Positions 8,401 through 41,737 of a stretch of DNA of 64,000 nt are shown in pieces. Position 1 is the stretch's first letter. Every line of letters starts with the position of its first letter. Position numbers and translations under genes: made by a program. Source of the stretch: Gammaproteobacteria bacterium. GTDB taxonomy: Bacteria > Pseudomonadota > Gammaproteobacteria > Ga0077536. The stretch is from assembly GCA_030830685.1 (NCBI GenBank), contig JAURMM010000021.1, positions 2,462 through 66,461 on the forward strand, given 5' to 3'. The notes under the pieces were generated by a model. The model saw only the letters and a program-made list of their open reading frames with translations, searched no databases and was not told where the DNA came from.

Positions 8401-8509
8401 TCTCTCTCCCCTTACTCGATAGTGCGGGCCGTTCGAACCGGCCCAGTGCCTGCTGAAGTGGGTGGCTGAGCCTATTCTTACCCATCGACAGCCAACAGGG
8501 GGAGAGCGC

Positions 8510-9514: not shown

Positions 9515-9550
9515 ACCCTCCGCCTACTGAACTGGCCGCTTTCCTCCCGC

Positions 9551-10495
9551 TCAGGCCGCGGGAGGAAAGCGGCTCGCGCGACTGAGTGCTGCCGGCAGCG
9601 CAGCACCGAGGGGTCCTTCCAACCAGTGTGTGGTGTCGATGATGCCATCCATCGACAGGCCGCTCGAATACCCCATGTTCTCGAAGAGATAGAGCAGATC
9701 CTCGGTGGCCACGTTACCCGTGGCGCCAGGCGCGAACGGACAGCCGCCCACGCCGCCACAGCTGGCGTCGAAAATGCGTACACCTGCCAGCAGCGCGGCA
9801 TAGACATTGGCCACCGCGGTGTTGCGCGTGTTGTGGAAGTGCAGGCGCAGCGGGACCCCGCCCCGGATGCGGTTGATTTCGCGCACCAGATGATCCACCT
9901 GCCCTGGCACCGCCACCCCAATCGTATCGGCCAGCCCGATCTCATCCACGCCGAGATCGAGCAGCCTGGCAGCAAGTTCCATCACCCGCGCAGGTGCCAC
10001 ACGGCCCTCGTAAGGACACCCGAAGGCGGCAGACAGCGTCACGCCGCAAGTGATGCCTGCACTGCGCGCCTCGCGCGCGATGACGGACACACTGTCCATG
10101 ATCGCGGCCACGGGCATGCCCTGGTTACGCTGGGAGAAGGTTTCGGTGGCTACCACCACCGTATTGATCTCACGCAGGCCGGATTCCACGGCGCGTTCAA
10201 AGCCACGCGTATTCAGGACCAGTCCGATGTAGCGCAGATCCGGCCGCTGCGGCAGCCCACGGATCACTTCGTCCGCGTCCGCCATCTGCGGGACCCGCTT
10301 GGGGTTCACGAAACTCACCACCTCCATGCGCCTCACCCCGGCGGCGATCAGGCGTTCGATGAAAGCAAGCTTGGTGGCGGTGTCGATCAGCGTGGGCTGG
10401 CTCTGCAGGCCGTCACGGGGACCGACCTCCACAATCTCGACGGGCGTTGGGGTGTCTGCATTCATGGGGCTCACCGGCGATGAAATCGGTGGCAT
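9551..10495 (-). CDS. Hydroxymethylglutaryl-CoA lyase
   Basis: The motifs VEIVEVGPRDGLQSQP ... HFHNTRNTAVANV ... GGCPFAPGATGNVATEDL form a DRE-TIM HMG-CoA lyase signature. The true start may be the internal MNADTP (10465). Confidence 0.9.
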   Translation of the reverse strand: MPPISSPVSPMNADTPTPVEIVEVGPRDGLQSQPTLIDTATKLAFIERLIAAGVRRMEVVSFVNPKRVPQMADADEVIRGLPQRPDLRYIGLVLNTRGFERAVESGLREINTVVVATETFSQRNQGMPVAAIMDSVSVIAREARSAGITCGVTLSAAFGCPYEGRVAPARVMELAARLLDLGVDEIGLADTIGVAVPGQVDHLVREINRIRGGVPLRLHFHNTRNTAVANVYAALLAGVRIFDASCGGVGGCPFAPGATGNVATEDLLYLFENMGYSSGLSMDGIIDTTHWLEGPLGAALPAALSRASRFPPAA

Positions 10496-26931: not shown

Positions 26932-27585
26932 TCAACGCGCGACGTCTGCTGGGCTAGTAGGCCCGCGCTTCTCAAGCACGGCATCGATGATGCCATAGGT
27001 TCGCGCATCCTCCGCGCTCATGAAGTTGTCCCTGTCAGTGTCCGCCGCCACTCGCTCCACCGTCTGCCCGGTGTGCTTGGACAGGATTTCGTTCAGACGA
27101 TCTCTAGCCTTCAGGATCTCGCGTGCGTGAATGTCGATATCGGTGGCCTGCCCCTGGAAGCCTCCCAAAGGCTGGTGAATCATCACTCGTGAATGCGGCA
27201 GGCTGAAACGCTTGCCCGCTGCACCGGCGCCGAGCAGAAGGGCACCCATGCTGGCAGCCTGTCCGATGCACAAGGTGCTCACATCGGGCTTGATGAACTG
27301 CATGGTGTCGTAGATAGCCAACCCGGCAGTTACAACGCCCCCCGGAGAATTGATGTACAGATGGATGTCCTTGTCGGGGTTTTCGGATTCCAGGAACAGC
27401 AGCTGCGCCACGATGACGTTGGCTACGTTGTCATCCACCGGCCCAACCAGAAAAATGACGCGTTCCTTGAGCAAGCGGCTGTAGATGTCATAGGCGCGCT
27501 CCCCTCGGGCGGTTTGTTCAACCACCATCGGTACCAGATTGAGGGCCCGTGTCTCCTGCATGCCGCTATTGCCTTGAAATCTCAA
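26932..27585 (-). CDS. clpP: ATP-dependent Clp protease proteolytic subunit
   Basis: The sequence [29 protein letters not shown] ... [11 protein letters not shown] ... MIHQPLGG contains the Ser-His-Asp catalytic context. The start is possibly the internal ATG at 27561. Confidence 0.95.
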
Positions 27586-28932
27586 TTAAGCCTCTCCGTT
27601 CACGGGTTCTTTGGCAGTCTGCCTTGGATTCATAAGGTCGTCAAACGACAGGGAAACCGGTTTCACGCGGGCCTTCCCGACGATCCAGGCCACGGCTTCT
27701 TCTTCCATGCAGAGCCCTTCAATGTCGCTCAGTCTGCTCGGCTCTTCGTAGTACCACTTGATAAGAGCTTCCGGTTGTTCGTAGGAAGCCGCCAGTGCTT
27801 CCACACGTTCCCGCACCTTGGCTGGCTGGGGCTTGATGCCGGCCAGTTTGATTATCTCCGCCATGATGAGACCCAGTTTCACCCGGTTGGACGCAGGTGT
27901 TTCAAACGCACCCGAATCTTCACCGTCGCCGAACTGCGCGGGGTCGAGTCCACGCATGGTAAGCGTGCGGCGCATCTCCTGGAGCATGCGCGCGGCTTCG
28001 GCCCTGACGAGTGCCTTTGGAAGGTCAAGCGAATTTTGCTCGCGCAGACTCTCCAGAACCTGCTCGTTGAAGCGGCGGGCCAAGGCGCGGTCACGCTCGC
28101 GCTCCATGTTGGCCCTCACTTCGGCGTGGAACTTCTCGAGACCCCCTTCTTCCACCCCGAACCGCGCAAAGAATGCGTCGTCGAGCTCTGGGAGCACTGG
28201 CTCTTCCACCTTGTTCACCTTGACCTTGAAGGCAACGCCACGGCCGGCCAGGTCAGTGTTGTGGTAGTCGTCAGGAAACTTCAAATTGAGAGTGCGCTCC
28301 TCCCCTGCACTCCCGCCAGCGAGTCCTTCTTCAAAGCCCGGGATCATGCGCCCTTGGCCCAGGATCAGGTTGAAATCCTTGGCGCTGCCGTTTTCGAACG
28401 GAGCCGTTTCACCCTCGAGGGTCCCCTCGAAGTCCATCTGCACGCGATCGCCATCCGCAGCCGGTCGCGCTGCTTCCCTGAACTCCTTCGACTGCTCGCG
28501 CAGTACTTGAATCATCTTTTCGAGGTCCACATCGGTGACCTCGCATTCAGGTTTTTCAATGTCGAGCTCTTCAAAGGGCGCCAAGGTGACTTCCGGGAAG
28601 ACCTCAAAGGTGGCGGTGAAGGCAAGACCCTGTCCCTCATCAGCAATGAGAGGGTCAATGACCGGGTCAGCCACCGGACGAAGCTGATGGGATGTCACCG
28701 CCTCCACGAAGGCGGAACGCACCACTTCCGAGATGACTTCACCGCGAACCCGCGGCCCGAACTGTCGCTCGATGACGCGAGCCGGCGCCTTGCCAGGCCG
28801 GAAACCATCGATGCGTGCATTGCGGGCCACGCTTTGAAGACGACTCCGGACCTGATCGGCGATCTGCTGCTCAGGAACCTCGATTTTCAGACGGCGTTCC
28901 AGCCCACCGGGCTGCTCAAGCGATACCTGCAT
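27586..28932 (-). CDS. tig: Trigger factor
   Basis: The sequence MQVSLEQPGGLERRLKIEVPEQQI ... RIDGFRPGKAP is the trigger factor N-terminus. It sits in the tig-clpP-clpX-lon order. Confidence 0.95.
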   Translation of the reverse strand: MQVSLEQPGGLERRLKIEVPEQQIADQVRSRLQSVARNARIDGFRPGKAPARVIERQFGPRVRGEVISEVVRSAFVEAVTSHQLRPVADPVIDPLIADEGQGLAFTATFEVFPEVTLAPFEELDIEKPECEVTDVDLEKMIQVLREQSKEFREAARPAADGDRVQMDFEGTLEGETAPFENGSAKDFNLILGQGRMIPGFEEGLAGGSAGEERTLNLKFPDDYHNTDLAGRGVAFKVKVNKVEEPVLPELDDAFFARFGVEEGGLEKFHAEVRANMERERDRALARRFNEQVLESLREQNSLDLPKALVRAEAARMLQEMRRTLTMRGLDPAQFGDGEDSGAFETPASNRVKLGLIMAEIIKLAGIKPQPAKVRERVEALAASYEQPEALIKWYYEEPSRLSDIEGLCMEEEAVAWIVGKARVKPVSLSFDDLMNPRQTAKEPVNGEA

Positions 28933-29011
28933 AATTCCTCGGTACTGTAAGTGCGTGGTGCATTTGCGTGATGTTGAAGCACGGCGACGACTTTGTCTGA
29001 ACCGTGCAGGA

Positions 29012-29096
<85 letters not shown>

Positions 29097-29369
29097 ACAG
29101 GTGCGGTTGCGTGGGTTGCCGTGCGGGCCCGGTCGGAGTCTCATCCCGATGCCGGCATGATTCCCTCTCATTCGGGGCGCAGCTGCCGTCGGGACGGAAA
29201 ACGTGCCAGAGGGGTCACAACCAAACGCGCTCCATTATAAAGGCAGCGGTGTGCCTTGGACACCCCGGCCCCTGCCTCCACGCGGCTCATGGCGATGGTC
29301 CGGCAGTCAAGCGAGATACGCCCGATGCTATACTTTCGAGCCATGAATGCATGCAAGAAACGCGGGTCA

Positions 29370-29885
29370 ATGGAAATCCTGACGATGCTCGGGTGCACGC
29401 CTCCCCGTCTCTGCCGGCTCTTTTGGCGGGGTTCGCTGATCTGCGCCCTGAGCACGTCAATCCCTGGCGCGGTAGCGGTCACGATCATGGAGTGCCGGGA
29501 TGCGGACGGGACATTCTCCTACCGCGATGCCTGCCCACCCGACTCCAAGCGCATCGGATCCATGCACCTGGGAAGCGCGACGGCCCGGCGGCCCAGCAAG
29601 GAGGAAGTCGCCAAAGCTCACCCGGTGACCCTCTTCGTGGTTCCGGAGTGCGATACCTGCGATCTGGTGCGTCTGCTGCTGCAGAAGCGCGGAATTCCGT
29701 TCGCTGAACGGGACGTCGAGCGGGATCCGTCACTGCAGCGCGAATTGCGTGAATTGTCCGGCGCAACCAAGGTGCCGACGGTATTGATCGGGCGGGAGGC
29801 CATGCCGGGCTTTGACCGTGGGCTCCTGCAGCAACGCCTCACTGAGGTCGGGTACCCTCTGGAGACTGTCCCTGCCGACCGCTGA
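29370..29885 (+). CDS. Glutaredoxin-like protein with DUF4124-like N-terminal region
   Basis: The motifs ECRDADGTFSYRDACPP (DUF4124-like) and VTLFVVPECDTCDLVRLLLQKRGIPFAERDV ... VPTVLIG indicate a glutaredoxin fold with a CxxC. The start is uncertain (29370 or 29385). Confidence 0.65.
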   Translation: MEILTMLGCTPPRLCRLFWRGSLICALSTSIPGAVAVTIMECRDADGTFSYRDACPPDSKRIGSMHLGSATARRPSKEEVAKAHPVTLFVVPECDTCDLVRLLLQKRGIPFAERDVERDPSLQRELRELSGATKVPTVLIGREAMPGFDRGLLQQRLTEVGYPLETVPADR

Positions 29886-29928
29886 GGTCGTGCGGGGAGT
29901 CCTTCCCCAGAGCAGCCGGGAATAGCAA

Positions 29929-30366
29929 ATGGCCACTCGACTCATGGACTCACCGGGCATGGCTGAAGAAGCGTTCTACCAAGCCTTCGAACGTGGTGAC
30001 GTGGATGCCATGATGACCGTCTGGGCAACGAGTCCGGATATCTCCTGTGTGCACCCCATGGGCCCGTTGCTGAGGGGCCCGGACGCGATCCGCGCAAGCT
30101 GGAGAGAGATCTTTCGTGGGCAGCTGCCTAGAAGGTTCGAGATCGAATGCCTCAGCCGCTTCGAGCAAGGCGAACTCGCCATTCATGTGCTGCCTGAGAC
30201 GATTCTGTTGCCGCTGCAACGACAGCGGCTACCTGCGCTCATCACCACCAATGTCTATCGTCGAGAGGCAGGCGTGTGGCGCATGGTCATGCACCACGCC
30301 AGCGTCACGAGGCGCGGACCTCAAGAAGCCTCCCCGTCAGACGTCCCGGCGGCAACACGCCACTAG
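29929..30366 (+). CDS. SnoaL-like / NTF2-fold family protein
   Basis: 145-aa ORF. The pattern EEAFYQAFERGDVDAMMTVWATSPDISCVHPMGPLLRGPDAIRASWREIF is typical of NTF2-like (DUF4440/SnoaL) proteins. Confidence 0.6.
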   Translation: MATRLMDSPGMAEEAFYQAFERGDVDAMMTVWATSPDISCVHPMGPLLRGPDAIRASWREIFRGQLPRRFEIECLSRFEQGELAIHVLPETILLPLQRQRLPALITTNVYRREAGVWRMVMHHASVTRRGPQEASPSDVPAATRH

Positions 30367-31418
30367 GCCGCCCACGGCCGCGCTGGCGGCGGCTCTCCTG
30401 CCTGAGAATAAAACTGCGATGCACGCTCTGAATGCGTGGGGGCCGCACGAACGTTCAACCCCCCGTATGCTGATTCCAACCGGGTGACCAGACCTCCGGT
30501 AACCACAATCTCCATGGGCTTGGCCCCTGCGCAAAGTGTGGCTGCCATTGCCAGGATTTCATCAGACGCGGTTGGGGACAACAGCCCCTCGCACAGGCCG
30601 GCGCGCAGTTGCAGGTCACCGTGACCAGCTGTGCCCTCCCCCTCTGCTAACTGCGCGCACAATTCCTGCACGCACGCCACCGCTTGCCCAAGGCGCTCCG
30701 ATGCCTCGAAGACTGCCCTGAGGCCATCAGCTTCGAGGCGTGCGACATAGCCCCCATGGCGGTAGACGCATTCCACCTGCATTCCAAGATAGCGGGCAAC
30801 CGTGCGCAATGCTGCCTCGGCCGAGGCTCTGGGGAGCGTGAGACGGACCGCGAGCACGCATGCTTCGCGGGCTTCAACAGCCATTTCGGGTCCCCCCGCG
30901 GTCACGTCATGCACGTCACGGACTCGTGGCACAAGGTAGCTCGCCAGTCCGGGATTCGGATCGTGCAAGACAGGCGTGGCCTGCGCACGCTGGAGCCTTC
31001 CGGCGAGCCTCGTTCTAAGGTGCTGGCCATTCACGGGTCGAGTGAGGAAGTCGTCTGCGCCGGCCGCAAATGCGTCGCTCACGGCCTTCTCATCAAAAGG
31101 CATGAGGATGCTCAGGATCGGCACGTGCCGGTAACGAGCCATCGCCCTGATCCGGCTGCAAAAATCAGCCGCGGCCAGCCCGGCGGGGTGCTGCGCAAGC
31201 AAAAAGGCGTCGATAGACTTCTCCAGGGCCAGGAACAGGGCCTTGTCCGCGCGTTCCGCCTCGAGAATCCGGTAACCCTCCTGCCGCAAGAGATTGACTA
31301 TGACAGCCCGCGCGGTGCGGTCCGGGTCAACCACGAGCACGGTTCGACCTTGGCCACTGCCCAAGGTGGTGTCCGCCGCAAAGACCCTGTCCAGACGCAC
31401 GGTCATCAAACCCCTCAT
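30363..31418 (-). CDS. Receiver-like domain fused to a cyclase-homology-like domain (both apparently degenerate)
   Basis: The N-terminal CheY-like fold reads VLVVDPD ... IDAFLLAQHPAG ... PILSILMP ... GADDFLTRP. The C-terminal half resembles a class III nucleotidyl cyclase domain (ACVLAVRLTL ... GGYVARLEADGLRAVF ... LQLRAGLCEGLL). The start could be 31418 or 31405. Confidence 0.55.
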   Translation of the reverse strand: MRGLMTVRLDRVFAADTTLGSGQGRTVLVVDPDRTARAVIVNLLRQEGYRILEAERADKALFLALEKSIDAFLLAQHPAGLAAADFCSRIRAMARYRHVPILSILMPFDEKAVSDAFAAGADDFLTRPVNGQHLRTRLAGRLQRAQATPVLHDPNPGLASYLVPRVRDVHDVTAGGPEMAVEAREACVLAVRLTLPRASAEAALRTVARYLGMQVECVYRHGGYVARLEADGLRAVFEASERLGQAVACVQELCAQLAEGEGTAGHGDLQLRAGLCEGLLSPTASDEILAMAATLCAGAKPMEIVVTGGLVTRLESAYGGLNVRAAPTHSERASQFYSQAGEPPPARPWAA

Positions 31419-31651
31419 TTCACATTCCCGCAGAACCCCTCTGCGGGCGATCAGGTTAAGTAATATATGACATTAATAAATCATCCTAACTATCTGTTCA
31501 AGTTTATTTTTGTCTCATTTCTCAGAAATCATCTCAGATCCGTCTACTGGGCGATGCCGGGTAGACCACTCCGATGGCCCACAGTGGGTGATCAGCGTAT
31601 GGTCTTGGTTCCGCGCAGTGCCCGCCGGCGCGAAGACTGGCAGAATGTCCA

Positions 31652-32365
31652 TTGGGCGATAGGCCGTTGGAGGGATGTGTGGACGAGCGGACTTTTGAGA
31701 ACCGACGTGCCGCAGGACGAGCCTTGGCTGAAGTGATGAGGCGTTGGGCGAGCGCGCCGGACACCCTCATGCTTGCCCTACCCAGAGGCGGGGTTCCGGT
31801 TGCACACGAATTGGGGCTGGCCCTCGGACTGCCCCTAGACGTCTTCATCGTGCGCAAACTGGGGGTCCCCGGACAGCCAGAGGTTGCCATGGGTGCGGTC
31901 GCGAGCGGCGGCGCCTGTCTGCTCAATCGCTCAATGATCAACTGGCTGGATATCAGCCCCGAGGCACTGGCGGAGGAAACCGCCACAGAACAGCGGGAGC
32001 TCGCGCGAAGGGAGCGTGTCTACCGAGGCCAGCGCCCCCCTGCCGACTACAAGGGCAAGACAGTCATTCTGGTTGACGATGGCGTGGCTACAGGCGCCAG
32101 CATGCGGGTGGCCGTTTCAGCCTTGCGCAGGGCTGGCGCAGCCAGGATCGTAGTGGCCATACCGGTCGCCCCACGCGACGCACTTGCTCAACTCGAGGAA
32201 GAAGCGGATGAGATCGTGTGCCTCGTAATCCCGCGTATCTTCGCGGCGGTCGGTCAGTTCTACGAAGATTTCACCCAGATTTCCGACGAGCAGGTCATTG
32301 CTGACCTTGCCGCGCATGATGCAACGCTGACGAGTGCCAATTTGCGTGCCGGGGATCCAGGCTGA
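31652..32365 (+). CDS. Phosphoribosyltransferase family protein
   Basis: The sequence FENRRAAGRALAEVM ... LALPRGGVPVAHELG ... GKTVILVDDGVATGASMR contains a PRPP-binding motif. The likely true start is GTG 31679, 4 nt after GGAGGG. Confidence 0.8.
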   Translation: MGDRPLEGCVDERTFENRRAAGRALAEVMRRWASAPDTLMLALPRGGVPVAHELGLALGLPLDVFIVRKLGVPGQPEVAMGAVASGGACLLNRSMINWLDISPEALAEETATEQRELARRERVYRGQRPPADYKGKTVILVDDGVATGASMRVAVSALRRAGAARIVVAIPVAPRDALAQLEEEADEIVCLVIPRIFAAVGQFYEDFTQISDEQVIADLAAHDATLTSANLRAGDPG

Positions 32366-32412
32366 TGCAGTTGATCCTGCTTGCGCTCCCGGGCTAGGAG
32401 GTCGCAGGTGCG

Positions 32413-32909
32413 TCAATCGGGAGGCTTCTCGGAGTGACCCCGGGCCGGCTCGAGGAGCGGTTGTTCGAAGATGGCGAACAAAAAACCCGTCCGCTGGATA
32501 GTGTGCGAGGGGCGGACGCCTGTCTGGTGTAGTCTCTGCATCGCGACCCTCAGCGCAGGCGGGACGAAAAGCTCGTCAGCTTGCTGATGCTGCTGGGCGC
32601 GGTGCCATAGAACCACGCCATAGGACGGCCGATGGCATCAAGCATCGGCTCAGGCACTGCCCCGCGATAAACCCAGGGTGCCAGGCGCTGATTGAGACTG
32701 ATCTCTGACTCGCAGTGGATTTTCCGGGTGGCCAATGAGCCGAAATAGACAGACGGACGGAGCACAGGCTTCTTCAGCTTGTAGACAGCTTCCCCAGCCA
32801 TGAACACCCAGGACAGATGGGTCTCTATGACCTCGACCTCGGTTACTAGAGGACGGTAAGTCGAGGCCCTTGCAAGAAACGCGAGCTTGTCTTCGAGACA
32901 TAAGACCAC
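32413..32909 (-). pseudogene. Truncated and frameshifted fragment of a phosphotransferase/AAA-kinase-family gene
   Basis: ORF 32550..32909 carries VEVIETHLSWVFMAGEAVYKLKKPV ... LNQRLAPWVY, the N-terminus of the bifunctional aminoglycoside-phosphotransferase-like/ATP-binding family. The sequence continues in another frame (32413..32616, ALRVAMQRLHQ) and then stops. About 170 aa remain of a family I recall as several hundred aa long. Confidence 0.55.
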
Positions 32910-33065
32910 CGTGAGGAATCCCCTCTCGCACTGTACGCACAGTGGCTGTCATCCTGCCGCAGGCAGTCCGTCGAGCGGAATGAAATTTCACCCCGCACGG
33001 AATGCGAGCGGGGTGAGGCGCGGTAATCCTGTCTGGAGGGTCCGCCAGGAAGGTGTTCGTTGTGA

Positions 33066-35216
33066 CTAGAAGGCAAACTCCACACCGCCCTGCACCAACA
33101 ACGGCATGCCCACGCGAATGCCTCGCGTGCGATCGACGACGTAGTCACGGTCAGCCAGGTTCTTGGCGGTGAGGAAAAGCGACGCTCCCCAGCGCTGCAA
33201 GGGGTAAGTCGCCGCGGCGTTGAAAATGAGGTTGGACTTGATGAGCCCGACCTGACCGTTGCCGTCGAAACTGGCGGCTTCCGTGTTGGCGAAGTCCGCG
33301 TATTGCGAGCCGACGTAAACGGCTTCCAGGCGGAGATCGAGGCCATTCTCGAGGGTGATGCCGAGCGTGGTCGTGGACAGGTTTTCAGGTGCGTAGGGGA
33401 GTCTCAGCCCCGGACGCGAGTTCTGCACGACGGTGCCCGAGGCGACCTCAGTCACTGCGGTCGTCTGCTCGGCCGTTGGCAGCCAAGTATAAGCTGCCTG
33501 AAGGTAGACGTTATGACGAGTGCTCATGAGCGCGTGGCTGTCCAAGCGCAAAAACAGTTCCAATCCTTCGTAGAGCGTCTCACCCTGTGCCAAGGGGGTA
33601 CTGCCACCCGCAATCGAGCCGACCATGATCTGGTTGTCAAAATCGTTGCGGAACAAGGTGCTCTCCACGCGAGCACCGGGCAAGGGCTCCGCCCTGAAAC
33701 CGAGTTCCGCATTGAGACTTTCTTCCGCGTCCACATCAGTGAAGGTTGCGCTGAGTCCAGAGGTTCCGATGAGGTCCTCAGTCCTCGGCGGCGCAAATCC
33801 TTTGTGCACACCGCCGAACAGGGTCAGTGTTTCCAACGGATTGAAAGTCATCCCCACACCCGGGATCACTTCCGCGAGATCATCGTCACCCTCAGTGCCA
33901 TTGATTCCATTCGCCCGGATGTTTTCAACGTATTCGACGCGGAATCCCGGCGTGAGCGTGAACTGACCAAGAAAGAACCTGTTCTGGGCGAACAGTGAAT
34001 AGGCATCAACATCCCGTTCGTTGTCTTCGGCCAGCGTCTGCCCCCCGCGCACGGTTGGCTGCGTACCGTTGAGCTGTACCCTGTCCTGCATTTCGAAATG
34101 GGCACGCACACCTGTCTGAAACTCGTTGCGGATACCAAACATCGTGTAGTCGGCCAACAAGCGCGGCTCAACGCCGTAGGTGTAGTAGCTGCGCAAGCGT
34201 CCCTGCGTGGAATTGCAGGTATCCGGATCAACGCGTTCACCCGCAAGGCGCGCATTGATGAAGCCTACGCCACACTGCGAGTCCGTCGTCGTACTCGACT
34301 GGCGCCACCATTCGCGATTGAAGTGGGTGAAGTAGAAGTTGGTAGTCAGGACCACCGCATCATTGAAGGCGATCTCATGACTGGCCGATGCACCCCAGCG
34401 GTCGGTGGTGAATTGGTTATTCTTGAACGGATTGTAGCGATAGCCAAAGTTACGAAGTTCCGCATCCGTCAGTCCCGTATAGGACACCTGCGAGTCTTCA
34501 CCGAAATAGCTCGCCTTGAGGGTGACCGCCTGGTTGGCAGTGAGGTTGAAAACACCCTTCAGGGCAACGTCATTCATCTCGGAGTTTTCATTGTCACGCG
34601 ATCCATCAGACTGCTTGTGTGCGAAATTGAGGAGCATGCCTTTGCCACCAAGCGAGAGACCGCCATTGAAGTAGTTGCGGTTACCTCCGGAGAGGTTTAC
34701 CCGCCCGCCGAATTCCTGCGGCGGCGTGGGCGTGATGTAGTTCAGCACGCCGCCTATCGTCTGCGGCCCGAACAGTATCTGCTCCGAGCCTTTCAGAATC
34801 TCGATGCTTTCGAAGCGTTCGATCGGTGGATGGTAGTAGCTCGAATTGTCCCCGTAGGGCGCATAGGCGAGAGGCAAGCCGTCTTCGAGCAGGAGCACCT
34901 TGGTAGAGCGGGTGGGGTTCAGTCCGCGCAGACCGATGTTCGGACGCAGGCCAATGCCCTCCTCTTCGCGCACATTGATCCCGGGCATCTTGCGCAGCGC
35001 CTCATTGACCGTGAAAGCGTGACTCTGCGTGATTTCCTTGTTGTCGATGATGGATGCCGAGCCTGCGATGTCGGGCAAACGATTGGAGCTGCCAACAACC
35101 TCCACAGTAGGCAGGCGACCCGTGACGGTGGCACCGTCTGCAGTGGCGGGTAGTGCGTGCGCCACGCAGGTCAACACGACAAGGGCGGGAAGGTGTTCAG
35201 AGAGCTGCGGCTTCAT
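33066..35216 (-). CDS. TonB-dependent outer-membrane receptor
   Basis: It has a signal peptide, a TonB-box-like LPTVEVVG, a plug domain (NVREEEGIGLRPNIGLRGLNP), a beta-barrel, and a C-terminal aromatic residue (VEFAF). Confidence 0.9.
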   Translation of the reverse strand: MKPQLSEHLPALVVLTCVAHALPATADGATVTGRLPTVEVVGSSNRLPDIAGSASIIDNKEITQSHAFTVNEALRKMPGINVREEEGIGLRPNIGLRGLNPTRSTKVLLLEDGLPLAYAPYGDNSSYYHPPIERFESIEILKGSEQILFGPQTIGGVLNYITPTPPQEFGGRVNLSGGNRNYFNGGLSLGGKGMLLNFAHKQSDGSRDNENSEMNDVALKGVFNLTANQAVTLKASYFGEDSQVSYTGLTDAELRNFGYRYNPFKNNQFTTDRWGASASHEIAFNDAVVLTTNFYFTHFNREWWRQSSTTTDSQCGVGFINARLAGERVDPDTCNSTQGRLRSYYTYGVEPRLLADYTMFGIRNEFQTGVRAHFEMQDRVQLNGTQPTVRGGQTLAEDNERDVDAYSLFAQNRFFLGQFTLTPGFRVEYVENIRANGINGTEGDDDLAEVIPGVGMTFNPLETLTLFGGVHKGFAPPRTEDLIGTSGLSATFTDVDAEESLNAELGFRAEPLPGARVESTLFRNDFDNQIMVGSIAGGSTPLAQGETLYEGLELFLRLDSHALMSTRHNVYLQAAYTWLPTAEQTTAVTEVASGTVVQNSRPGLRLPYAPENLSTTTLGITLENGLDLRLEAVYVGSQYADFANTEAASFDGNGQVGLIKSNLIFNAAATYPLQRWGASLFLTAKNLADRDYVVDRTRGIRVGMPLLVQGGVEFAF

Positions 35217-35252
35217 CGGGTAACGGTCCTGCGGAGTAGAGAGTAATCTTAG

Positions 35253-35267
35253 TGAGAAACATTCTCA
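35253..35267. promoter_or_regulatory. Fur-box-like palindrome upstream of the TonB-dependent receptor gene
   Basis: TGAGAA-ACA-TTCTCA is a perfect 6-3-6 inverted repeat lying 37-51 nt upstream of the receptor ATG. It resembles the TGATAAT-N-ATTATCA Fur core. Confidence 0.45.
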
Positions 35268-35418
35268 TTTCATAAACTCCACGTGTCAACGGGTTTTTTT
35301 GCTTCACTTGCGGGAAACACAGGCGTACGCTGGATTTCCGCGTTCCGCCCCGCGGGAGGGCGTTCGCCATGCCCCGTCAACAGGTCTCCCGCCCCTATTC
35401 AAAGACTGGAGGAACGCC

Positions 35419-36138
35419 ATGAGAGAACCCATCGTCCGCTTGTTCATCAGCGCAAGTCAGGCGCAGAATGCGGCAGCGGCCCTGCTTGCCGCGCAATTTG
35501 CGCCTGGTCGCGTGCACCTCGTGAGCGCGCCTAGTCCCTCCGATCACGCATCCCTGGATGAAATCACAGCCTCGGTGATGGCGGGCTACGTGCTGCGCTC
35601 GCGCGCCAGGGTCCTTGCCGAGAGAATTCTGGGTGGCTGCTCTCTTGTGGTCGTCCACCCGCCGTTCGGAAGCGCAGGTCTCGCTATCCGGACCTTGGAG
35701 TCGTTTGGTGCTACGGAGAGTGGACTGGCCAGCGCCGTTGAGCCAAGTCGAGCCTGGGATGAGGCAGCCCCTCTGTCCTCAGCCTTGGCGCTGCCGGTCC
35801 GTTGGAACCAGCCTACGCCGCTGTCGAACATGCTCTGCCTCCCTGCCTTGAAGAAATCCCGCCCAGGCTTCCTGGGAGACCTGTACCCCCACACGCTCAG
35901 CATGTCCGACGTCATCGGAATGCCAGTGCTGTGCTCCGTCGGGGCTCCCCTGTCCCGGCTGCTGGGTCTCAAGCTGCTGAAGCAAGGCGCAGCCCCGCTT
36001 TCATCGACGCTCGGCCTGAAGCTCCTGCGACAGGGTGCAGCCCCGCTTTCCAAGGCTCTCGGCCTCAAGCTCCTTAGCCGCAACCCTGCGCCCCTTTCCT
36101 CTCTCTTTGGGCTTCCCGCCCTCTGCCGCGCCGGCTGA
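35419..36138 (+). CDS. Hypothetical protein with C-terminal 16-aa tandem repeats (APLSxxLGLKLLxxG)
   Basis: ATG 35419 is preceded by GGAGGAA. The N-terminal domain is about 110 aa. It is followed by about 6 copies of a [AT]PLS-x2-L-x-L-[KP]-x-L motif. I recognise no family for it. Confidence 0.6.
   Translation: MREPIVRLFISASQAQNAAAALLAAQFAPGRVHLVSAPSPSDHASLDEITASVMAGYVLRSRARVLAERILGGCSLVVVHPPFGSAGLAIRTLESFGATESGLASAVEPSRAWDEAAPLSSALALPVRWNQPTPLSNMLCLPALKKSRPGFLGDLYPHTLSMSDVIGMPVLCSVGAPLSRLLGLKLLKQGAAPLSSTLGLKLLRQGAAPLSKALGLKLLSRNPAPLSSLFGLPALCRAG
35941..36135 (+). repeat. 48-nt in-frame tandem repeat (3 full copies plus 1 degenerate copy)
   Basis: The units are 35941-35988 (GAPLSRLLGLKLLKQG), 35989-36036 (AAPLSSTLGLKLLRQG), 36037-36084 (AAPLSKALGLKLLSRN), then PAPLSSLFGLPALCRAG. 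More degenerate copies lie upstream (APLSSALALPV, TPLSNMLCLPAL). Confidence 0.85.
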
Positions 36139-36148
36139 GACTGCCTCG

Positions 36149-36169
36149 AAGGGGCGCTGCGCGCCCCTT
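36149..36169 (+). terminator. Putative intrinsic terminator hairpin after the repeat-protein gene
   Basis: AAGGGGCGC-TGC-GCGCCCCTT forms a 9-bp GC-rich stem 11 nt after the stop codon. It is followed by TCCTCC, a pyrimidine tail that is not a clean U-run. Confidence 0.45.
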
Positions 36170-36247
36170 TCCTCCTGCCTGCTCCAAACTGCCCCCCGTG
36201 CGGGTGAGGTGTACGCGCGCCTGAATCGTTTGTTGCTTGCCTCGATT

Positions 36248-36301
36248 TGTCAGTTTTTGTTTACAGTTTTGTTTGACATTCAAAATTGACACTTCTAGAG
36301 T
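36248..36301 (+). promoter_or_regulatory. puc promoter region with two PpsR/CrtJ-type palindromes
   Basis: Site 1 is TGT-cagtttttgttt-ACA (36248-36265, a perfect TGT-N12-ACA). Site 2 is TGA-cattcaaaattg-ACA (36274-36291, one mismatch). They are 8 bp apart. One candidate sigma70 promoter is TTGACA (36273-78), 17 bp, TAGAGT (36296-301). An alternative is TTTACA (36260-65), 15 bp, CAAAAT (36281-86). Confidence 0.55.
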
Positions 36302-36399
36302 GACCCTGCCCGGAATGGGGGTTTCTTGATGCCCTTACCAGGCACCGCGCGTTGCTCCCGCGACGGGCGGAAAACAAATGCTTATCTGAGGAGGATGGC

Positions 36400-36570
36400 A
36401 TGGCTATGGCTAATGACCTTGACGATCCGAACAGGGTTTGGCCCACCGGCTTGACAATTGGCGAGTCGGAGGAGCTGCACAAGCACGTCATTGATGGAGC
36501 GCGCGTGTTTTTTGCGATCTCCGTGGTGGCGCATATCCTGGCGTACGTCTACACCCCGTGGTTTGGTTAG
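36400..36570 (+). CDS. pucB: Light-harvesting complex 2 (peripheral antenna) beta polypeptide
   Basis: [35 protein letters not shown] aligns with LH2 beta chains (for example Rps. acidophila [35 protein letters not shown]), including both His residues and the Arg after DG. ATG 36400 lies 5 nt after GAGGAGGA; a second in-frame ATG is at 36406. Confidence 0.9.
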
Positions 36571-36582
36571 GAGGGCACACAG

Positions 36583-36729
36583 ATGAACCAAGGAAGAATC
36601 TGGTGCGTGGTGAAACCGACAGTCGGTCTGCCGCTTTTTCTGGGCACCGTGCTGGTGATTTCGCTGCTTGTGCACCTTGCAGTGCTGACCAATACCACCT
36701 GGTTCTCGGCCTTCCTTCAGGGGGGTTGA
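36583..36729 (+). CDS. pucA: Light-harvesting complex 2 (peripheral antenna) alpha polypeptide
   Basis: This gene is absent from the ORF track because it has only 49 codons. ATG 36583 lies 7 nt after GGAGGG. The translation [48 protein letters not shown] aligns without gaps to Rps. acidophila LH2 alpha ([48 protein letters not shown]...). The BChl-ligand His31 is conserved. Confidence 0.9.
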
Positions 36730-36763
36730 GTGCCGGACCCGTTGGCGCAAGCTGGCGGTTCCC

Positions 36764-36808
36764 GGACAGTACCGGCCCTGAGGAATCAGGTGCCGGTGCC
36801 GTCTGTCC
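36764..36808 (+). promoter_or_regulatory. Intercistronic pucA-pucC stem-loop
   Basis: GGACAG-T-ACCGGC-CCTGA-GGAA-TCAGG-T-GCCGGT-GCCGT-CTGTCC forms 17 bp in three stacked helices capped by a GGAA tetraloop. No U-run follows. Confidence 0.55.
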
Positions 36809-36826
36809 ATCAAAAGTCTTTCTGAC

Positions 36827-38257
36827 ATGAGCAAGACTGACGCCAGCCGATTCCGGCTGTGGCTCGCGAACAGTCCCCGCTTTCTTCCCTTTGCCGATGT
36901 CGCAACACCGGACCTTCCGCTGCCGCGCCTGCTCCGGCTGTCGCTCTTCCAGATTTCGGTCGGCATGTCGCTGGTGCTGCTCGTCGGCACCTTGAATCGC
37001 GTGATGATCGTTGAACTGGGAGTGCCGGCGAGCCTGGTCGGTCTGATGATCTCGATGCCCGTCCTGTTCGCGCCGCTGCGAGCTTTGATCGGTTTTCGAT
37101 CTGACCACCACCGATGTGCGCTCGGCTGGCGCCGGGTGCCCTATCTTTGGCAGGGCAGCCTGCTGCAATTCGGGGGATTCGCAATCATGCCTTTTGCCCT
37201 GCTCGTGCTGGGCGGGGCGGGCCATGCCGCTGAGGCGCCGGTCTGGATTGGTCGATTGTCTGCCGCTCTTGCTTTCATGCTGGTTGGGGCGGGCATCCAT
37301 GTGGTGCAAACCGTCGGCCTGGCACTCGCGACAGACCTCACGGTGCACGAATCCCATCCGCGAGTTGTCGGTTTGATGTATGTGATGTTGCTGCTGGGAA
37401 TGCTCGGCAGTGCGCTCTTGTTCGGACATGCTCTGGAGGATTTCTCACCGGGCCGGCTGGTGCAGGTGATTCAAACAGCCGCAGTGACCGGGCTCGCGCT
37501 CAATGCCATTGCGTTGTGGAAGCAGGAGCCTCGCCAATCGCGGCGACCGACCTCATCACCAGCCCCTGCCCCGTCGTTCAGGAGCACGTGGCTGCAGTTG
37601 CTTGAAACGGGTAACACGTTCAGGGCTTTGTTCATCGTGGGCGTTGGCACGCTCGCCTTCAGCATGGCGGACATTCTTCTGGAACCTTTCGGCGGGCAGA
37701 TTCTGGGGATGGCAGTCTCTGCGACCACGCGCCTGACCGCACTGCTGGCAGGTGGCGGCCTGGTCGGTTTTGCTTTTGCTTCACATGTGCTGAGCAAGGG
37801 TGGTTCACCCCTCAAAATGGCACTGGCAGGCGCCCTGTTGGGCATCCCGGCCTTCATGGCGGTGATTGTCGCGGCGAGTCTCCAGTCCCCGATGATCTTC
37901 CTGCTCGGCAATCTGTTCATAGGCTTCAGCGGCGCGCTATTCGGCCACGGCACGCTGACGGCGACCATGCAGAGTGCGCCTGAGGAACATAACGGGCTCG
38001 CGCTCGGGGCCTGGGGCGCCGTACAGGCCACGGCCGCCGGCGTAGGCGTTGCCAGCAGCGGCATCCTGCGGGACATGGTCAACCTCGTGGCACCAGAGGT
38101 GCAGCTTGTGCCAACCTCGGGTGCCAACGGATATCTTGCCGTATACCTCATCGAGGCTTCGCTGCTGGTCTTGACGGTGGCGGTGTTGCTCCCGCTCGTT
38201 TACCGAAGCAACGAATTGCACACTGGCCGCCGTGCTCACCTGCACCATTCGCCATGA
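36827..38257 (+). CDS. pucC: PucC / BCD-family MFS protein (LH2 assembly factor)
   Basis: The sequence FLPFADVATPDLPLPRLLRLSLFQISVGMSLVLLVGTLNRVMIVELGVPASLVGLMISMPVLFAPLRALIGFRSDHH is the hallmark N-terminal region of PucC/LhaA. It is a 476-aa polytopic membrane protein. Confidence 0.9.
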   Translation: MSKTDASRFRLWLANSPRFLPFADVATPDLPLPRLLRLSLFQISVGMSLVLLVGTLNRVMIVELGVPASLVGLMISMPVLFAPLRALIGFRSDHHRCALGWRRVPYLWQGSLLQFGGFAIMPFALLVLGGAGHAAEAPVWIGRLSAALAFMLVGAGIHVVQTVGLALATDLTVHESHPRVVGLMYVMLLLGMLGSALLFGHALEDFSPGRLVQVIQTAAVTGLALNAIALWKQEPRQSRRPTSSPAPAPSFRSTWLQLLETGNTFRALFIVGVGTLAFSMADILLEPFGGQILGMAVSATTRLTALLAGGGLVGFAFASHVLSKGGSPLKMALAGALLGIPAFMAVIVAASLQSPMIFLLGNLFIGFSGALFGHGTLTATMQSAPEEHNGLALGAWGAVQATAAGVGVASSGILRDMVNLVAPEVQLVPTSGANGYLAVYLIEASLLVLTVAVLLPLVYRSNELHTGRRAHLHHSP

Positions 38258-38766
38258 GTCGCCTCGCGATTCTTGAATACCCGGATATCCGCCTGCGCGA
38301 CCAGGCCGTTCCTGTCACCGATTTCGGGGGCGCGCTGCACGAGCTGGTGGACGATATGTTCGAGACCCTGCGCGCGAGCCGCGCCATCGGGCTGGCCGCC
38401 CCGCAAGTAGGCTACAACCAACGCATCGTGGTGGTGGATGCGTCAGGAACCGGGAACGCTCCCACGCTGTTCATCAACCCCCGCATCACGGCGCGGCATT
38501 TATGGGCCGTGATCGAAGAGAGCTGCCTCTCTGTACCGGGGCTTGAGGGACGCGTCAAACGATGCCTGCGTGTGACGGTCGAGGCACAGGACAGACACGG
38601 CAGGCCTTTCACGCGTCATCTCGAAGACATGGAGGCTGTGGTCGTCCAGCACGAGCTGGATCATCTGGAAGGCGTGTTGTTTGTCGACCGGTTACCGCTG
38701 TTGCGACAGCTTGTCTGGCGCTGGAAAAACCGGCACGTGGCGGAGCCAGGACGCGTCAGCGCCTGA
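38254..38766 (+). CDS. def: Peptide deformylase
   Basis: All three motifs are present: GLAAPQVG, EESCLSVPG (an EGCLS variant), and QHELDHLEG. The ATG overlaps the pucC stop (ATGA at 38254-38257). No fmt gene is adjacent. Confidence 0.9.
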   Translation: MSRLAILEYPDIRLRDQAVPVTDFGGALHELVDDMFETLRASRAIGLAAPQVGYNQRIVVVDASGTGNAPTLFINPRITARHLWAVIEESCLSVPGLEGRVKRCLRVTVEAQDRHGRPFTRHLEDMEAVVVQHELDHLEGVLFVDRLPLLRQLVWRWKNRHVAEPGRVSA

Positions 38767-39005
38767 CCCCGCAACAACTCTCTCAAACCACTTCGTCCAA
38801 AGGTCCCGGCTCAGCGAAGCGTCGCAGCACGTTCGCGAGGTTTCCCTGCTCGTTCTATACCCCATGCAGCGTCATCCGGAATGCGGTTGAGAGGATCGCA
38901 TCGATGATCCGCAATCAGCATGCCGTGCGCCTCCACCGGCGAATCAGAGGCTCAAGTCCAGCCGATGCAGTGGTGGGCCATTTCTAGAGAATTCGCTCCA
39001 ATGCC

Positions 39006-39782
39006 TCAACGTGTCGGCAAGGTACGCCGCTGATGATGGGCACGCACCGCGTCCCCAAACGCAGTGAATAACCTGACCGAATCTGGATTCGCGTGCGCCT
39101 TGTACTCCGGATGCCATTGGGTCCCGAGCGTGAAATGGCACGCACCGCGCACGCTCACGGCCTCGATGACTCCATCAGGTGCCAAAGCTTCAACCTGCAG
39201 CGAATCGGCGAGCCTCGCGATGCCTTGTCTGTGCAGGGAATTGACGATGATCTCCTCCCTTTGCAGGACCCCTGCAAGAAAACCTCCAGCCAACATACGT
39301 ACCGGATGAACCGGCCGAAAGCGTTCATCCATGCTGCCGTGGTCAGGCTCCCGATGATCCAGACGACCCTCTCTGCGTTGCAGTTCGGTCTCCAGCGTGC
39401 CGCCCAGTGCCACATTCAGTTCCTGAAAGCCCCGGCAGATGCAGAACATCGGCATTTTGCGGGCCAGACAGCGGCGAATGAGCTCAAGACTCAGGTTGTC
39501 CCGCAGCGGATCGTAGGGTTCGTGATCGACACTTGGGGCTTCCCCGTAGTGCGGTGGATGTACGTTGGACACGGCCCCCGTCATCAGCACACCATCCAGG
39601 TGTTCGAGCACGCTGTCGATATCAAAGGCATCGGCCATGGCGGGGATCATGACCGGAATGCAGCGCGACACCTCCGCCACGGCACGCATGTATTTGTCAC
39701 CAATCGAGTGGTAGAGGTAACCCTCCTCGTCCCATGTGTCCGCAGGAAGGCCCACCAGAGGCTTATTTGGAATGTGTTGCAT
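39006..39782 (-). CDS. Gamma-glutamyl-GABA hydrolase-like class I glutamine amidotransferase (peptidase C26)
   Basis: The motif MPMFCICRGFQELNVALGGTL contains the nucleophile Cys, and GTQWHPEY contains the His. The family is PuuD-like. Confidence 0.8.
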   Translation of the reverse strand: MQHIPNKPLVGLPADTWDEEGYLYHSIGDKYMRAVAEVSRCIPVMIPAMADAFDIDSVLEHLDGVLMTGAVSNVHPPHYGEAPSVDHEPYDPLRDNLSLELIRRCLARKMPMFCICRGFQELNVALGGTLETELQRREGRLDHREPDHGSMDERFRPVHPVRMLAGGFLAGVLQREEIIVNSLHRQGIARLADSLQVEALAPDGVIEAVSVRGACHFTLGTQWHPEYKAHANPDSVRLFTAFGDAVRAHHQRRTLPTR

Positions 39783-39796
39783 GACTGTCGAGCGGT

Positions 39797-40006
39797 TCAG
39801 TTGAATCTTTCTTTGTTGATGACAGAGGCAATGTATATTCCCAGCGGCCGGGCGACCTCACGTTTGGTGCTGGGACACGCAACCGTCTCTGCGATAAGAG
39901 CGCGCTCGAAGCGCTGCACCCGCGCGCGCAGCGCTACGTTGAGGTTCGGGCGAGGGCGGTAGCGTCTAATTTTAAATCTGCCACAGCCACGGATCTCACC
40001 AGCCAT
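39797..40006 (-). pseudogene. Possible remnant of a Fis-type HTH regulator C-terminus
   Basis: The 69-aa ORF ends with FERALIAETVACPSTKREVARPLGIYIASVINK. This loosely resembles the C-terminal Fis-type HTH of NtrC-family activators. No upstream domains are present, and it sits at the edge of the lower-GC islet. Confidence 0.3.
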
Positions 40007-40060
40007 CCCACTGGGTTACTGGGACCGGTCAGCCGGATAGCCACCACGCTACCGAGTGGT

Positions 40061-40459
40061 GTGTGGCAGTGTCAGTTAGCCGGCAGTCTGGGCTATGGCG
40101 GCTGTGACTTGCTGGATTATGTAGGCAATGCACGCTTGGTCCTTGATGGAACTAAGGACCAATATAGCTTTGGTCATCTTGTCCACAAAAGTAGTGTCTA
40201 TTACACGCTCAGAGTGCAAGGATCGTCTTCCTCTTGTCAGGCAATCATTGATCCGACGGGGAGCAAGTACACCATGAACAGGTCCCAACGGGGTATGTTG
40301 CGGTTAACTTATACGTGCGGCACTGAACCGGCATATTCCGTGCAATGGAGCTTTCTGCTTGATAACGCGAGCAACAGCGCCTACCTCACAGTGGACGGCA
40401 CGACCCAGAACGGCGGACGGCCTGGGCACCTTGGTGAGGGGCAATGTCGCCGACTCTGA
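40061..40459 (+). CDS. Hypothetical protein (lower-GC, Cys-containing, no recognised family)
   Basis: 132-aa ORF in a stretch that is visibly AT-richer than the rest of the window. I recognise no motif, and its coding status is uncertain. Confidence 0.3.
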   Translation: MWQCQLAGSLGYGGCDLLDYVGNARLVLDGTKDQYSFGHLVHKSSVYYTLRVQGSSSSCQAIIDPTGSKYTMNRSQRGMLRLTYTCGTEPAYSVQWSFLLDNASNSAYLTVDGTTQNGGRPGHLGEGQCRRL

Positions 40460-40666
40460 GTTGGCAGAAGATCAGCATCCAGTCTGTATAACGTGGTAAC
40501 TGGCTCATTGCGCTCGCGAAGGCTGAGCCGCGTTAACTGCTGCAAGTATTTCCCAGCCTTGCGTTCCAAAGAGCTCGGCTGGACGGCCTTTGGTGTGTCT
40601 TGATGCCAAGCCAGCAACAGATCAATCGACTGCTCGCCAACCGCCACAAACACCCCATGGCCGATA

Positions 40667-40688
40667 CTCCCCGGAAAAGCCCGGGGAG
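40667..40688 (-). terminator. Hairpin downstream of the PAS gene
   Basis: On the minus strand, CTCCCCGG-GCTTTT-CCGGGGAG forms a perfect 8-bp stem about 58 nt after the PAS gene stop. There is no clear U-run. Confidence 0.35.
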
Positions 40689-40745
40689 GCGCGCCGATGA
40701 GGTGAATGTTGTGGTGGGAGAACTAGGCCGCAGGAGTGTCGGGAT

Positions 40746-41144
40746 TCAGAGGCCGGACACCTCTCGCTGGATAGCAATCCACCCACTGATCTTCGAGCCG
40801 TTTTTCACCGGCAGCACGCGCCAGTGCATGATGAAGGGTGTCTTGTCCTTCTTGTAGTTGATGGCGCGGCCTTCGAAAGTCTTGCCCGTTTCCAGAGCCT
40901 GCCTCAGCCGGTTGATCACGCTCTGGTCCGTCGCTGGTCCCTGCAGGATACGGGGCGTTTTTCCGATGGCCTCTTCCTTCGTGTATCCCGTCAGCTTCTT
41001 GAACGCATTGTTGGCGTACATGATCTTGCCAGCAGGCGTGGCATCGGTAATCAGGATGGAGTCGAAGCTGTTGTCGGCCAGCACTTTCAGCAGCGTCAGC
41101 GTGGCCTTGCCATCAGACAGCACCTTGTCGATTGATATGCCCAT
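40746..41144 (-). CDS. Stand-alone LOV-like PAS domain protein lacking the adduct-forming cysteine
   Basis: The 132-aa sequence ILITDATPAGKIMYANNAFKKLTGYTKEEAIGKTPRILQGPATDQSVINRLRQALETGKTFEGRAINYKKDKTPFIMHWRVLPVKNGSKISGWIAIQREVS aligns along its whole length with LOV domains (YtvA GKNCRFLQGKHTD ... NYKKDGTMFW ... GIQNDIT; phototropin GRNCRFLQGPETD). GAGGAA lies 3 nt before the ATG. Confidence 0.75.
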   Translation of the reverse strand: MGISIDKVLSDGKATLTLLKVLADNSFDSILITDATPAGKIMYANNAFKKLTGYTKEEAIGKTPRILQGPATDQSVINRLRQALETGKTFEGRAINYKKDKTPFIMHWRVLPVKNGSKISGWIAIQREVSGL

Positions 41145-41260
41145 GAGACTTTCCTCGGTTATGAATTTGAATACCGAGCCACAGCGTAGTGGTTTGAGGA
41201 CGGAATCACCATTCTGGCGTCCGGGAGGAGTGCTGGGGAAGCACGCAGAGACGATGGAGC

Positions 41261-41336
<76 letters not shown>

Positions 41337-41363
41337 TGAATCCAGGGAATCATCGAAGATGAA

Positions 41364-41440
41364 TGGGGCGAGCGATGGGGATCGAACCCACGACACCAGG
41401 TACCACAAACCTGTGCTCTACCAACTGAGCTACGCCCGCC
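41364..41440 (-). tRNA. tRNA-His (GUG)
   Basis: The reverse complement is GGCGGGCGTAGCTCAGTTGGTAGAGCACAGGTTTGTGGTACCTGGTGTCGTGGGTTCGATCCCCATCGCTCGCCCCA, with anticodon GTG. The extra 5' G(-1) opposite C73 is typical of tRNA-His. Confidence 0.9.
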
Positions 41441-41528
41441 ATTGAATCTTCATTCAGTCTGCGGAAATGTCCGGGCCGGGATTCAAAGCCCGCCCGACTC
41501 CGGGGCCTTGGCCCTCCAGGCGAAGCGG

Positions 41529-41605
41529 TGGCGCGCCTGGCAGGATTCGAACCTGCTACCCTCGGCTTAGAAGGCCGATGCTCTATCCGAATGAGCTACA
41601 GGCGC
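41529..41605 (-). tRNA. tRNA-Arg (UCU)
   Basis: The reverse complement is GCGCCTGTAGCTCATTCGGATAGAGCATCGGCCTTCTAAGCCGAGGGTAGCAGGTTCGAATCCTGCCAGGCGCGCCA, with anticodon TCT. Confidence 0.9.
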
Positions 41606-41660
41606 ATTTCAAACCCGGGCCAACCCTTGGTCAACCAATCGTCGTTGCGGTGGGAAATTT

Positions 41661-41737
<77 letters not shown>

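Follow-up and report, generated by a model that had tools for sequence, protein, structure and literature searches.

A pucBAC light-harvesting locus in a gammaproteobacterial draft genome as a probable copy of a widespread five-gene LH2 cassette

The window analyzed here, a 64-kb stretch of a gammaproteobacterial genome (positions 2462-66461 of contig C97, in a draft assembly of 3.09 Mb that comprises 264 contigs and is 91% complete), contains a plus-strand locus that, judging from homology and conserved gene order, is very probably a functional operon for a peripheral antenna of the light-harvesting complex 2 (LH2) type and one copy of a widespread five-gene cassette. A preliminary description of this DNA had recognized a three-gene pucBAC operon. 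The genes pucB, pucA and pucC are real, with the coordinates and the strand given there, and the 49 codons attributed to pucA are 48 amino acids plus the stop, but the unit has five genes rather than three: an uncharacterized gene, here called X, lies upstream and a peptide deformylase gene, def, downstream. Indeed, the end that the description gave for the locus, 38766, coincides with the stop of def, a fourth gene that it left unnamed, and not with that of pucC (38257). The pucBAC antenna itself is ordinary; the conserved five-gene LH2 cassette, the members of which are given below, is the real interest of this locus.

35419-36138, plus strand: gene X, encoding an uncharacterized, puc-associated protein of 239 amino acids with a folded N-terminal domain and 16-residue repeats
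36400-36570, plus strand: pucB, encoding the LH2 beta polypeptide of 56 amino acids, with AGGAGG 8 nt 5' of the start
36583-36729, plus strand: pucA, encoding the LH2 alpha polypeptide of 48 amino acids (49 codons with the stop), with GGAGG 5' of the start
36827-38257, plus strand: pucC, encoding an LH2 assembly factor of the major facilitator superfamily (MFS) type, 476 amino acids, beginning 97 nt past pucA
38254-38766, plus strand: def, encoding a peptide deformylase paralogue of 170 amino acids, the ATG of which overlaps the pucC TGA (ATGA)

All three puc products score above the Pfam cut-offs. PucB and PucA match the LHC family (PF00556) with 40.5 and 52.3 bits, respectively (cut-off 23), and PucC matches PUCC (PF03209, the BCD family of MFS) with 475.9 bits (cut-off 21), covering positions 1-399 of the 401 in the profile, as well as MFS_1 with 53.3 bits; it is one of three members of the PucC family encoded in the genome. 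Among the chains of solved structures, PucA aligns without gaps to 7ze8_A, 8z81_a, 9dwz_A (B800-820) and 1ijd_A (LH3), with E-values from 1e-19 to 2e-18, and the best relatives of PucB are the LH2 beta chains of Rhodopseudomonas palustris, likewise gap-free (7ze3_B, E 2e-25), with LH1 chains scoring far lower against both proteins (best LH1 beta chain, E 7e-8). In these alignments, the histidines that ligate bacteriochlorophyll (BChl) are retained in both small proteins, just as the preliminary description held, namely, His31 of PucA (LLVHLAV) and the histidine of PucB within VVAHILA, and so is the PucB arginine near B800 (DGARVF). The PucA chain starts with Met1-Asn-Gln-Gly-Arg-Ile-Trp and terminates in GG, the last residue being Gly48. 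By homology, PucB is shown to be the beta apoprotein, PucA the alpha apoprotein, and PucC an MFS-type assembly factor.

We surveyed the cassette at 80 loci, each from another genome, that encode relatives of PucC with 59-67% identity. The pucBA pair is found 5' of pucC in nearly all of these loci, def 3' of pucC in about 50, and a homologue of X, on the same strand and beside pucBA, in 46. The genes are arranged as follows.

33 loci: pucB-pucA-X-pucC-def
9 loci, with Gammaproteobacteria-type or unresolved Pseudomonadota labels: X-pucB-pucA-pucC-def, the order seen here
a few loci: variants with duplicated pucBA
28 loci: pucBAC alone

The order in the window is thereby shown, by comparison of gene arrangements, to be the 'X-first' one seen in loci labeled Gammaproteobacteria. 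Loci that combine X and def with pucBAC carry the labels Alphaproteobacteria, Gammaproteobacteria, Gemmatimonadota and Myxococcota, some of which were given to binned metagenome assemblies and could be erroneous. In the literature searched, we found no published description of the linkage of X or def to pucBAC. The puc genes alone would add one more LH2 phototroph to the record, which is routine; the extended cassette hints at two additional, as yet unstudied proteins in LH2 biogenesis, with conservation across several phyla, and cultured carriers suitable for testing their roles, a strain of Algihabitans albus and a strain of Salinarimonas, are among the matches.

Compared with the classical puc operons, pucBAC of Rhodobacter sphaeroides and Rubrivivax and pucBACDE of Rhodobacter capsulatus, the present locus has the same pucB-pucA-pucC order and the same position outside the photosynthesis gene cluster; promoter palindromes of the PpsR type and a hairpin 3' of pucA are further common features. 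Unlike those operons, it includes X, 5' of pucB and behind an intergenic region of its own, and a dedicated def joined to the end of pucC. A further arrangement was observed in another genome of this family, assembled into a single contig of 5.7 Mb (locus L099; G056:C1:2353000-2372999, approximately 7395-10214), where X-pucB-pucA is convergent with pucC and there is no def; therefore, the cassette can be rearranged and can lose def.

The def product is a predicted peptide deformylase, with 157.7 bits to Pep_deformylase (PF01327) and 145 bits to TIGR00079 (cut-off 103.95). It contains the motifs GxGxAAxQ, E[GS]CLS and HExDH, from which enzymatic activity is predicted at the sequence level. This is the third def in the genome, and the three copies, located on contigs C52, C132 and C97, fall into three different groups of a tree of 74 deformylases (50 puc-linked ones plus the other copies from this genome and 15 others; a quick tree with moderate support). 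All puc-linked defs are found on one side of a single branch (support of 85 in the Shimodaira-Hasegawa-like approximate likelihood ratio test), so that the linkage label changes only once over the tree, as low a number as this being obtained in 0 of 500 shuffles, and they are separate both from the housekeeping clade (support 96) and from a third def clade. Residues Gln51, Cys91, His133, Glu134 and His137 are invariant in the 50 puc-linked defs; in 82% of them, ESCLS replaces EGCLS, and the lineage is also characterized by Phe24, Leu35 and Leu39. Thus, compared with type 1 peptide deformylase, the three motifs and the metal ligands are kept, whereas the puc-linked lineage is separate and resides next to pucC. 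To judge from these features, the puc-linked defs appear to be active enzymes and to make up a lineage of their own that moves together with the antenna genes. In a sister genome from the same genus (G031), two def copies were detected in the scan.

In nonameric LH2, B800 is ligated by alpha-Cxm1, the carboxylated N-terminal methionine of the alpha chain (PMC12817894, PMC9618040). Because carboxylation needs a free amine, the puc-linked def is a plausible supplier of free alpha Met1: under this more speculative part of the scheme, the dedicated deformylase would free the amine of alpha Met1, which would then become carboxylated and ligate B800. To our knowledge, no enzyme has been assigned to the step from alpha Met1 to the carboxylated B800 ligand, and a specialized deformylase would provide a direct handle on it.

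Protein X has no match in Pfam. In an AlphaFold2 model built from an alignment of 48 sequences, residues 1-100 form an alpha/beta domain with predicted local distance difference test scores of 95-98, and the repeat part is extended, with scores of about 50. The repeats comprise six clear 16-residue units, xxAPLSSxLGLKLLxx, and one degenerate unit. Throughout the family, the number of repeats ranges from about 1 to 7; the sole invariant residue of the family alignment is Ser136, located in a PLS repeat, and its counterpart Ser227 is retained in 90% or more of the sequences. The family is large: of 1.84 billion cluster representatives searched, at least 540 match at E<=1e-30 and 1035 at E<=1e-10, and every named match is a 'hypothetical protein'. 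Comparison of the X model with the folds in the Protein Data Bank (PDB) yielded none at E<=0.001 and only generic small alpha/beta folds, and sequence and profile searches against the PDB gave nothing significant. In one locus labeled Myxococcales (L020:5908-6381), a second open reading frame (ORF) resembling the N-terminal domain of X (E 2e-15) is located directly 3' of def, besides the X that lies between pucA and pucC.

Several observations weigh against the reading of this locus as an antenna operon of the five-gene kind with the roles proposed here for its parts. The roles of X and def are drawn from linkage only; a gap of 262 nt lies between X and pucB, so that X may not be co-transcribed; the similarity of X to the LH2 gamma subunit, discussed below, is not significant; LH2 with a carboxylated Met1 also forms in species that have no puc-linked def; in NCBIfam, PucB matches nothing but the LH1 beta model, with 64.1 bits against a cut-off of 61; and, as the draft assembly is 91% complete, the genome might contain another puc locus, or photosynthesis genes that the assembly lacks. 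The operon could consist of pucBAC only, with X and def being mere neighbors that have no functional tie to the antenna. Both the distance and the promoter between X and pucB would fit such an arrangement, as would the 28 of 82 puc loci in which neither X (by single-sequence search) nor def was found and in which a housekeeping def suffices for LH2. We nevertheless consider it improbable: X and def are linked to puc in about 50 loci across alphaproteobacterial, gammaproteobacterial, Gemmatimonadota and Myxococcota labels; the linkage outlasts rearrangement, with X found either 5' of pucB or between pucA and pucC; in the tree, the puc-linked defs are separate from the housekeeping defs of the genomes that they come from; def is coupled to pucC through the overlapping ATGA; and, when the X profile is used, 'plain' Rhodobacteraceae loci also turn out to have an X-like ORF, directly 3' of pucC. 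Alternatively, PucB and PucA might build a second core-type, LH1-like ring instead of a peripheral LH2, which would account for the NCBIfam match of PucB and for the weak score of PucA on the LH1 alpha model, which at 24.5 bits does not reach the cut-off of 35. This possibility seems scarcely credible, given that every top solved relative is an LH2 or LH3 chain, with LH1 far lower, that the alpha N-terminus MNQGRIW is of the B800-binding, nonameric LH2 type, that pucC is located downstream of the two genes, and that a separate pufBA pair adjoins pufLM in this genome. NCBIfam covers LH1 antenna models only, and we treat the match of PucB to the LH1 beta model as cross-recognition at the family level.

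For X, two accounts were weighed. Tentatively, and short of being probable, X could be a non-stoichiometric assembly or stabilizing factor of the PucD/PucE kind that works with PucC and binds no pigment. The X profile matches the ORF directly 3' of pucC, that is, at the pucD/E position, in 12 Rhodobacteraceae-type loci, a Gemmobacter draft included (E 1e-23 to 7e-6), pucBACDE being the usual cluster in Rhodobacter (PMC9231093), and the AlphaFold2 model of X shows a folded, presumably cytoplasmic domain and no transmembrane helices. The likeness of the X-like ORF to PucD and PucE of R. capsulatus is by position only, and no named PucD/E came up with the Gemmobacter ORF 3' of pucC as query, the matches being 'hypothetical protein' only, which speaks against this account. 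Given that older publications present PucE as the gamma chain, a subunit of the complex, the assembly-factor account overlaps with the second one, which we regard as rather unlikely, namely, that X belongs to LH2 as a stoichiometric belt subunit, resembling gamma of Rps. palustris, with one repeat per alpha/beta unit at the cytoplasmic face and possibly extra BChl. The gamma subunit is a ribbon of 16-residue repeats around six alpha/beta units that binds six extra BChls via serine, is extended or unstructured when unbound, and has been reported from Rhodopseudomonas only (PMC9618040). X shares with it (RPA1495, 7zcu chain S; PMC9618040) the 16-residue period, the G-x-P-L-[IL] core, which extends to a common G-x-P-L-[IL]-x-K, and the tie to LH2, and its repeats are predicted to be extended or unstructured, like unbound gamma; furthermore, gamma is the third-best match of the X profile among 177,635 PDB sequences, a matrix built from the X repeats detects those of gamma in register, and X has its own conserved serines, the invariant Ser136 and Ser227. 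By contrast, neither the E-value of that profile match (0.55, HMMER) nor the hhalign probability for the repeat region (6.6%) is significant, and the scores of the repeat matrix are negative. Unlike X, with its folded N-terminal domain of 100 amino acids, gamma is a protein of 97 amino acids that lacks such a domain, and its BChl-ligating serine directly precedes glycine, a spacing that differs in X; the variation in repeat number across the X family also speaks against a belt. In view of these scores, X was not adopted as a homologue of gamma, and we treat the link as an analogy worth testing.

Under the reading of the locus as a five-gene cassette, the repeats of X might, more speculatively, dock at the cytoplasmic face on one alpha/beta unit after another, with X being an accessory subunit similar to PucD/E or gamma, or else an assembly helper. 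The accessory gamma and PucD/E proteins, known from two genera only, may be special cases of a more general X family. In its most elaborate version, which we find unlikely as a whole, the five-gene block would be a self-contained LH2 module, in which def deformylates alpha Met1 and X is a widespread, ancestral gamma or PucD/E-type accessory subunit with one repeat per alpha/beta unit and perhaps extra pigments, both acting at the cytoplasmic face.

With respect to its spectral type, residues 44-45 of PucA are Phe-Leu, and the hydrogen-bond donors of B800-850 complexes, Tyr44 and Trp or Tyr at position 45, are not present. The Phe44-Leu45 pair is the signature of the LH3 (B800-820) alpha chain; therefore, B800-820-type absorption is predicted. 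Both hydrogen-bond donors to the acetyl groups of B850 would be lost, and the long-wavelength band would be expected near 820 nm, as in LH3, in a ring that would be nonameric and in which B800 would be held by the modified alpha Met1. Compared with the LH2 and LH3 complexes of Rps. palustris and Rhodoblastus acidophilus (7ze8, 7ze3, 7zdi, 1kzu, 1ijd, 9dwz), the start of the alpha chain, Met1-Asn-Gln-Gly-[KR]-Ile-Trp, is shared, and alpha His31, the beta histidine and the beta arginine are common to all. Unlike the solved alpha chains of these species, PucA has a cysteine at position 8 and stops at Gly48 without a C-terminal tail, and its gene context differs by the presence of X and def. Cassette-type PucA chains are 47-50 amino acids long and mostly end in GG, whereas plain-type PucA chains have long C-terminal tails. 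The codon for Cys8 is at 36604-36606; this residue, in the sequence IWCVV, is conserved in most cassette-type PucA, and the solved LH2 alpha chains have Thr or Leu instead. At four loci from Chromatiaceae-labeled and other gammaproteobacterial genomes (L022, L025, L035 and L055), there are two pucBA pairs with X between them, and the paired alpha chains differ at positions 44-45, for example, YW against FF, which suggests spectral variants encoded within one cassette.

Upstream of pucB and in the spacer between pucA and pucC, the following elements were noted.

36248-36265, no strand assigned: perfect PpsR/CrtJ-type palindrome TGT-N12-ACA, TGTCAGTTTTTGTTTACA
36274-36291, no strand assigned: second palindrome, TGA-N12-ACA, with one mismatch, 8 bp after the first (read from the sequence)
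36273-36301, plus strand: sigma-70-like promoter TTGACA-17 nt-TAGAGT, a consensus match only (10 of 12 positions), overlapping the second palindrome
36735-36805, plus strand: two stacked hairpins without a U-tract, from RNA folding of the 97-nt pucA-pucC spacer

A block of 62 bp (36245-36306), which encloses both palindromes and the promoter, is identical in three sister species, and the sequence 5' of it has diverged. In the window as a whole, TGT-N12-ACA occurs 8 times against 8.7 expected, that is, not above chance; it is found within the 260 bp 5' of 65 of 78 pucB genes from the related loci, against a background of 0.065 per 260 bp, and paired palindromes 8 bp apart precede pucB in 25 related loci. 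The features of a PpsR-type promoter are therefore present by sequence: there are two palindromes, one of which overlaps the promoter, and the genome also carries ppsR (467 bits). Transcription would start from the sigma-70-like promoter overlapped by the PpsR-type palindromes, and, as happens in other purple bacteria, PpsR would repress the operon when oxygen or light levels are high. The pucA-pucC spacer has a predicted folding energy of -50.4 kcal/mol (z = -4.4), and 0 of 200 shuffled sequences fold as well. By analogy with puf and puc operons, we infer that the hairpins may be a decay barrier or a partial terminator, through which the message for pucBA would be more abundant than that for pucC-def.

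The source organism is an anoxygenic phototroph by gene content, because pufLM, pufBA, bchY and ppsR are encoded in the same genome, which substantiates what the preliminary description had concluded from the antenna genes. Contig C263 carries pufM and pufL (369 and 328 bits) with pufBA adjoining, bchY (713 bits, cut-off 425) and the ppsR gene mentioned above (cut-off 275). Reaction-center and bacteriochlorophyll genes are thus present, and a single puc locus was detected: in a scan of the whole genome for LHC, no second puc pair was found, the pair described here being the only LHC pair on C97. That bch, crt and puf genes are absent from the 64 kb, as had been noted, is borne out for 40 of the larger ORFs of the window, among which Pfam scans gave only housekeeping or unassigned matches, ClpA, IlvD, FabI, PpiD, Lon, ClpX, PpiB, LpxH, NadC, PpsA, AceEF, ArgG, LysS, PrfB and similar proteins. 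The physical separation of the antenna operon from the photosynthesis genes also stands, with puc on C97 and puf, bch and ppsR on C263. This separation is unsurprising because pucBA is normally located outside the photosynthesis gene cluster (PMC11659472). In some related genomes, the cassette lies beside homologues of genes from the puf/bch contigs of this genome; in most, none of these is found within 4 kb.

Among the relatives of this organism, pufLM was detected in 11 of the 81 genomes of the family, including 4 of the 13 of its genus, and X in 3 of these 13. The three carriers of X are close to one another, with PpiB 93-95% identical, compared with 65-74% for the rest of the genus. In the sister G031, the cassette occupies the same site, between the genes for a TonB-dependent receptor and a C26 peptidase; in the other sister, the contig ends after pucA, and the same TonB-dependent receptor gene is found on the 5' side. 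PucB and PucA are 100% identical at the protein level in both sisters (L097 and L098), whereas PucC and def of G031 are 81% and 72% identical, respectively, and X is 76-88% identical in the sisters. Selection on the PucB and PucA apoproteins is, by this comparison, evidently very strong.

The cassette is part of a 12-kb segment (29097-41260) that extends from a tRNA-Leu gene (29012-29096) to a cluster of Lys, His, Arg and Pro tRNA genes (41261-41737). In three more distant members of the genus, nothing from this segment was found 5' of the tRNA cluster and ppiB; because the segment is missing there as a whole, the boundaries of an insertion cannot be defined. The GC content of the cassette (62%) and its GC at third codon positions (0.67-0.74) equal those of the genome, so that recent horizontal transfer of the cassette finds no support and its acquisition does not appear to be recent. 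The same segment also contains genes for glutaredoxin-like and SnoaL-like proteins, a response regulator, a phosphoribosyltransferase, and the TonB-dependent receptor and C26 peptidase mentioned above, and the sister G031 differs in approximately 4 kb of it. Further upstream in the window, a plus-strand ORF at 27193-28950 was rejected as a gene, being a shadow of tig without a Pfam match; the minus strand carries tig itself (27586-28932) and clpP (26932-27585), both of them located upstream of clpX and lon.

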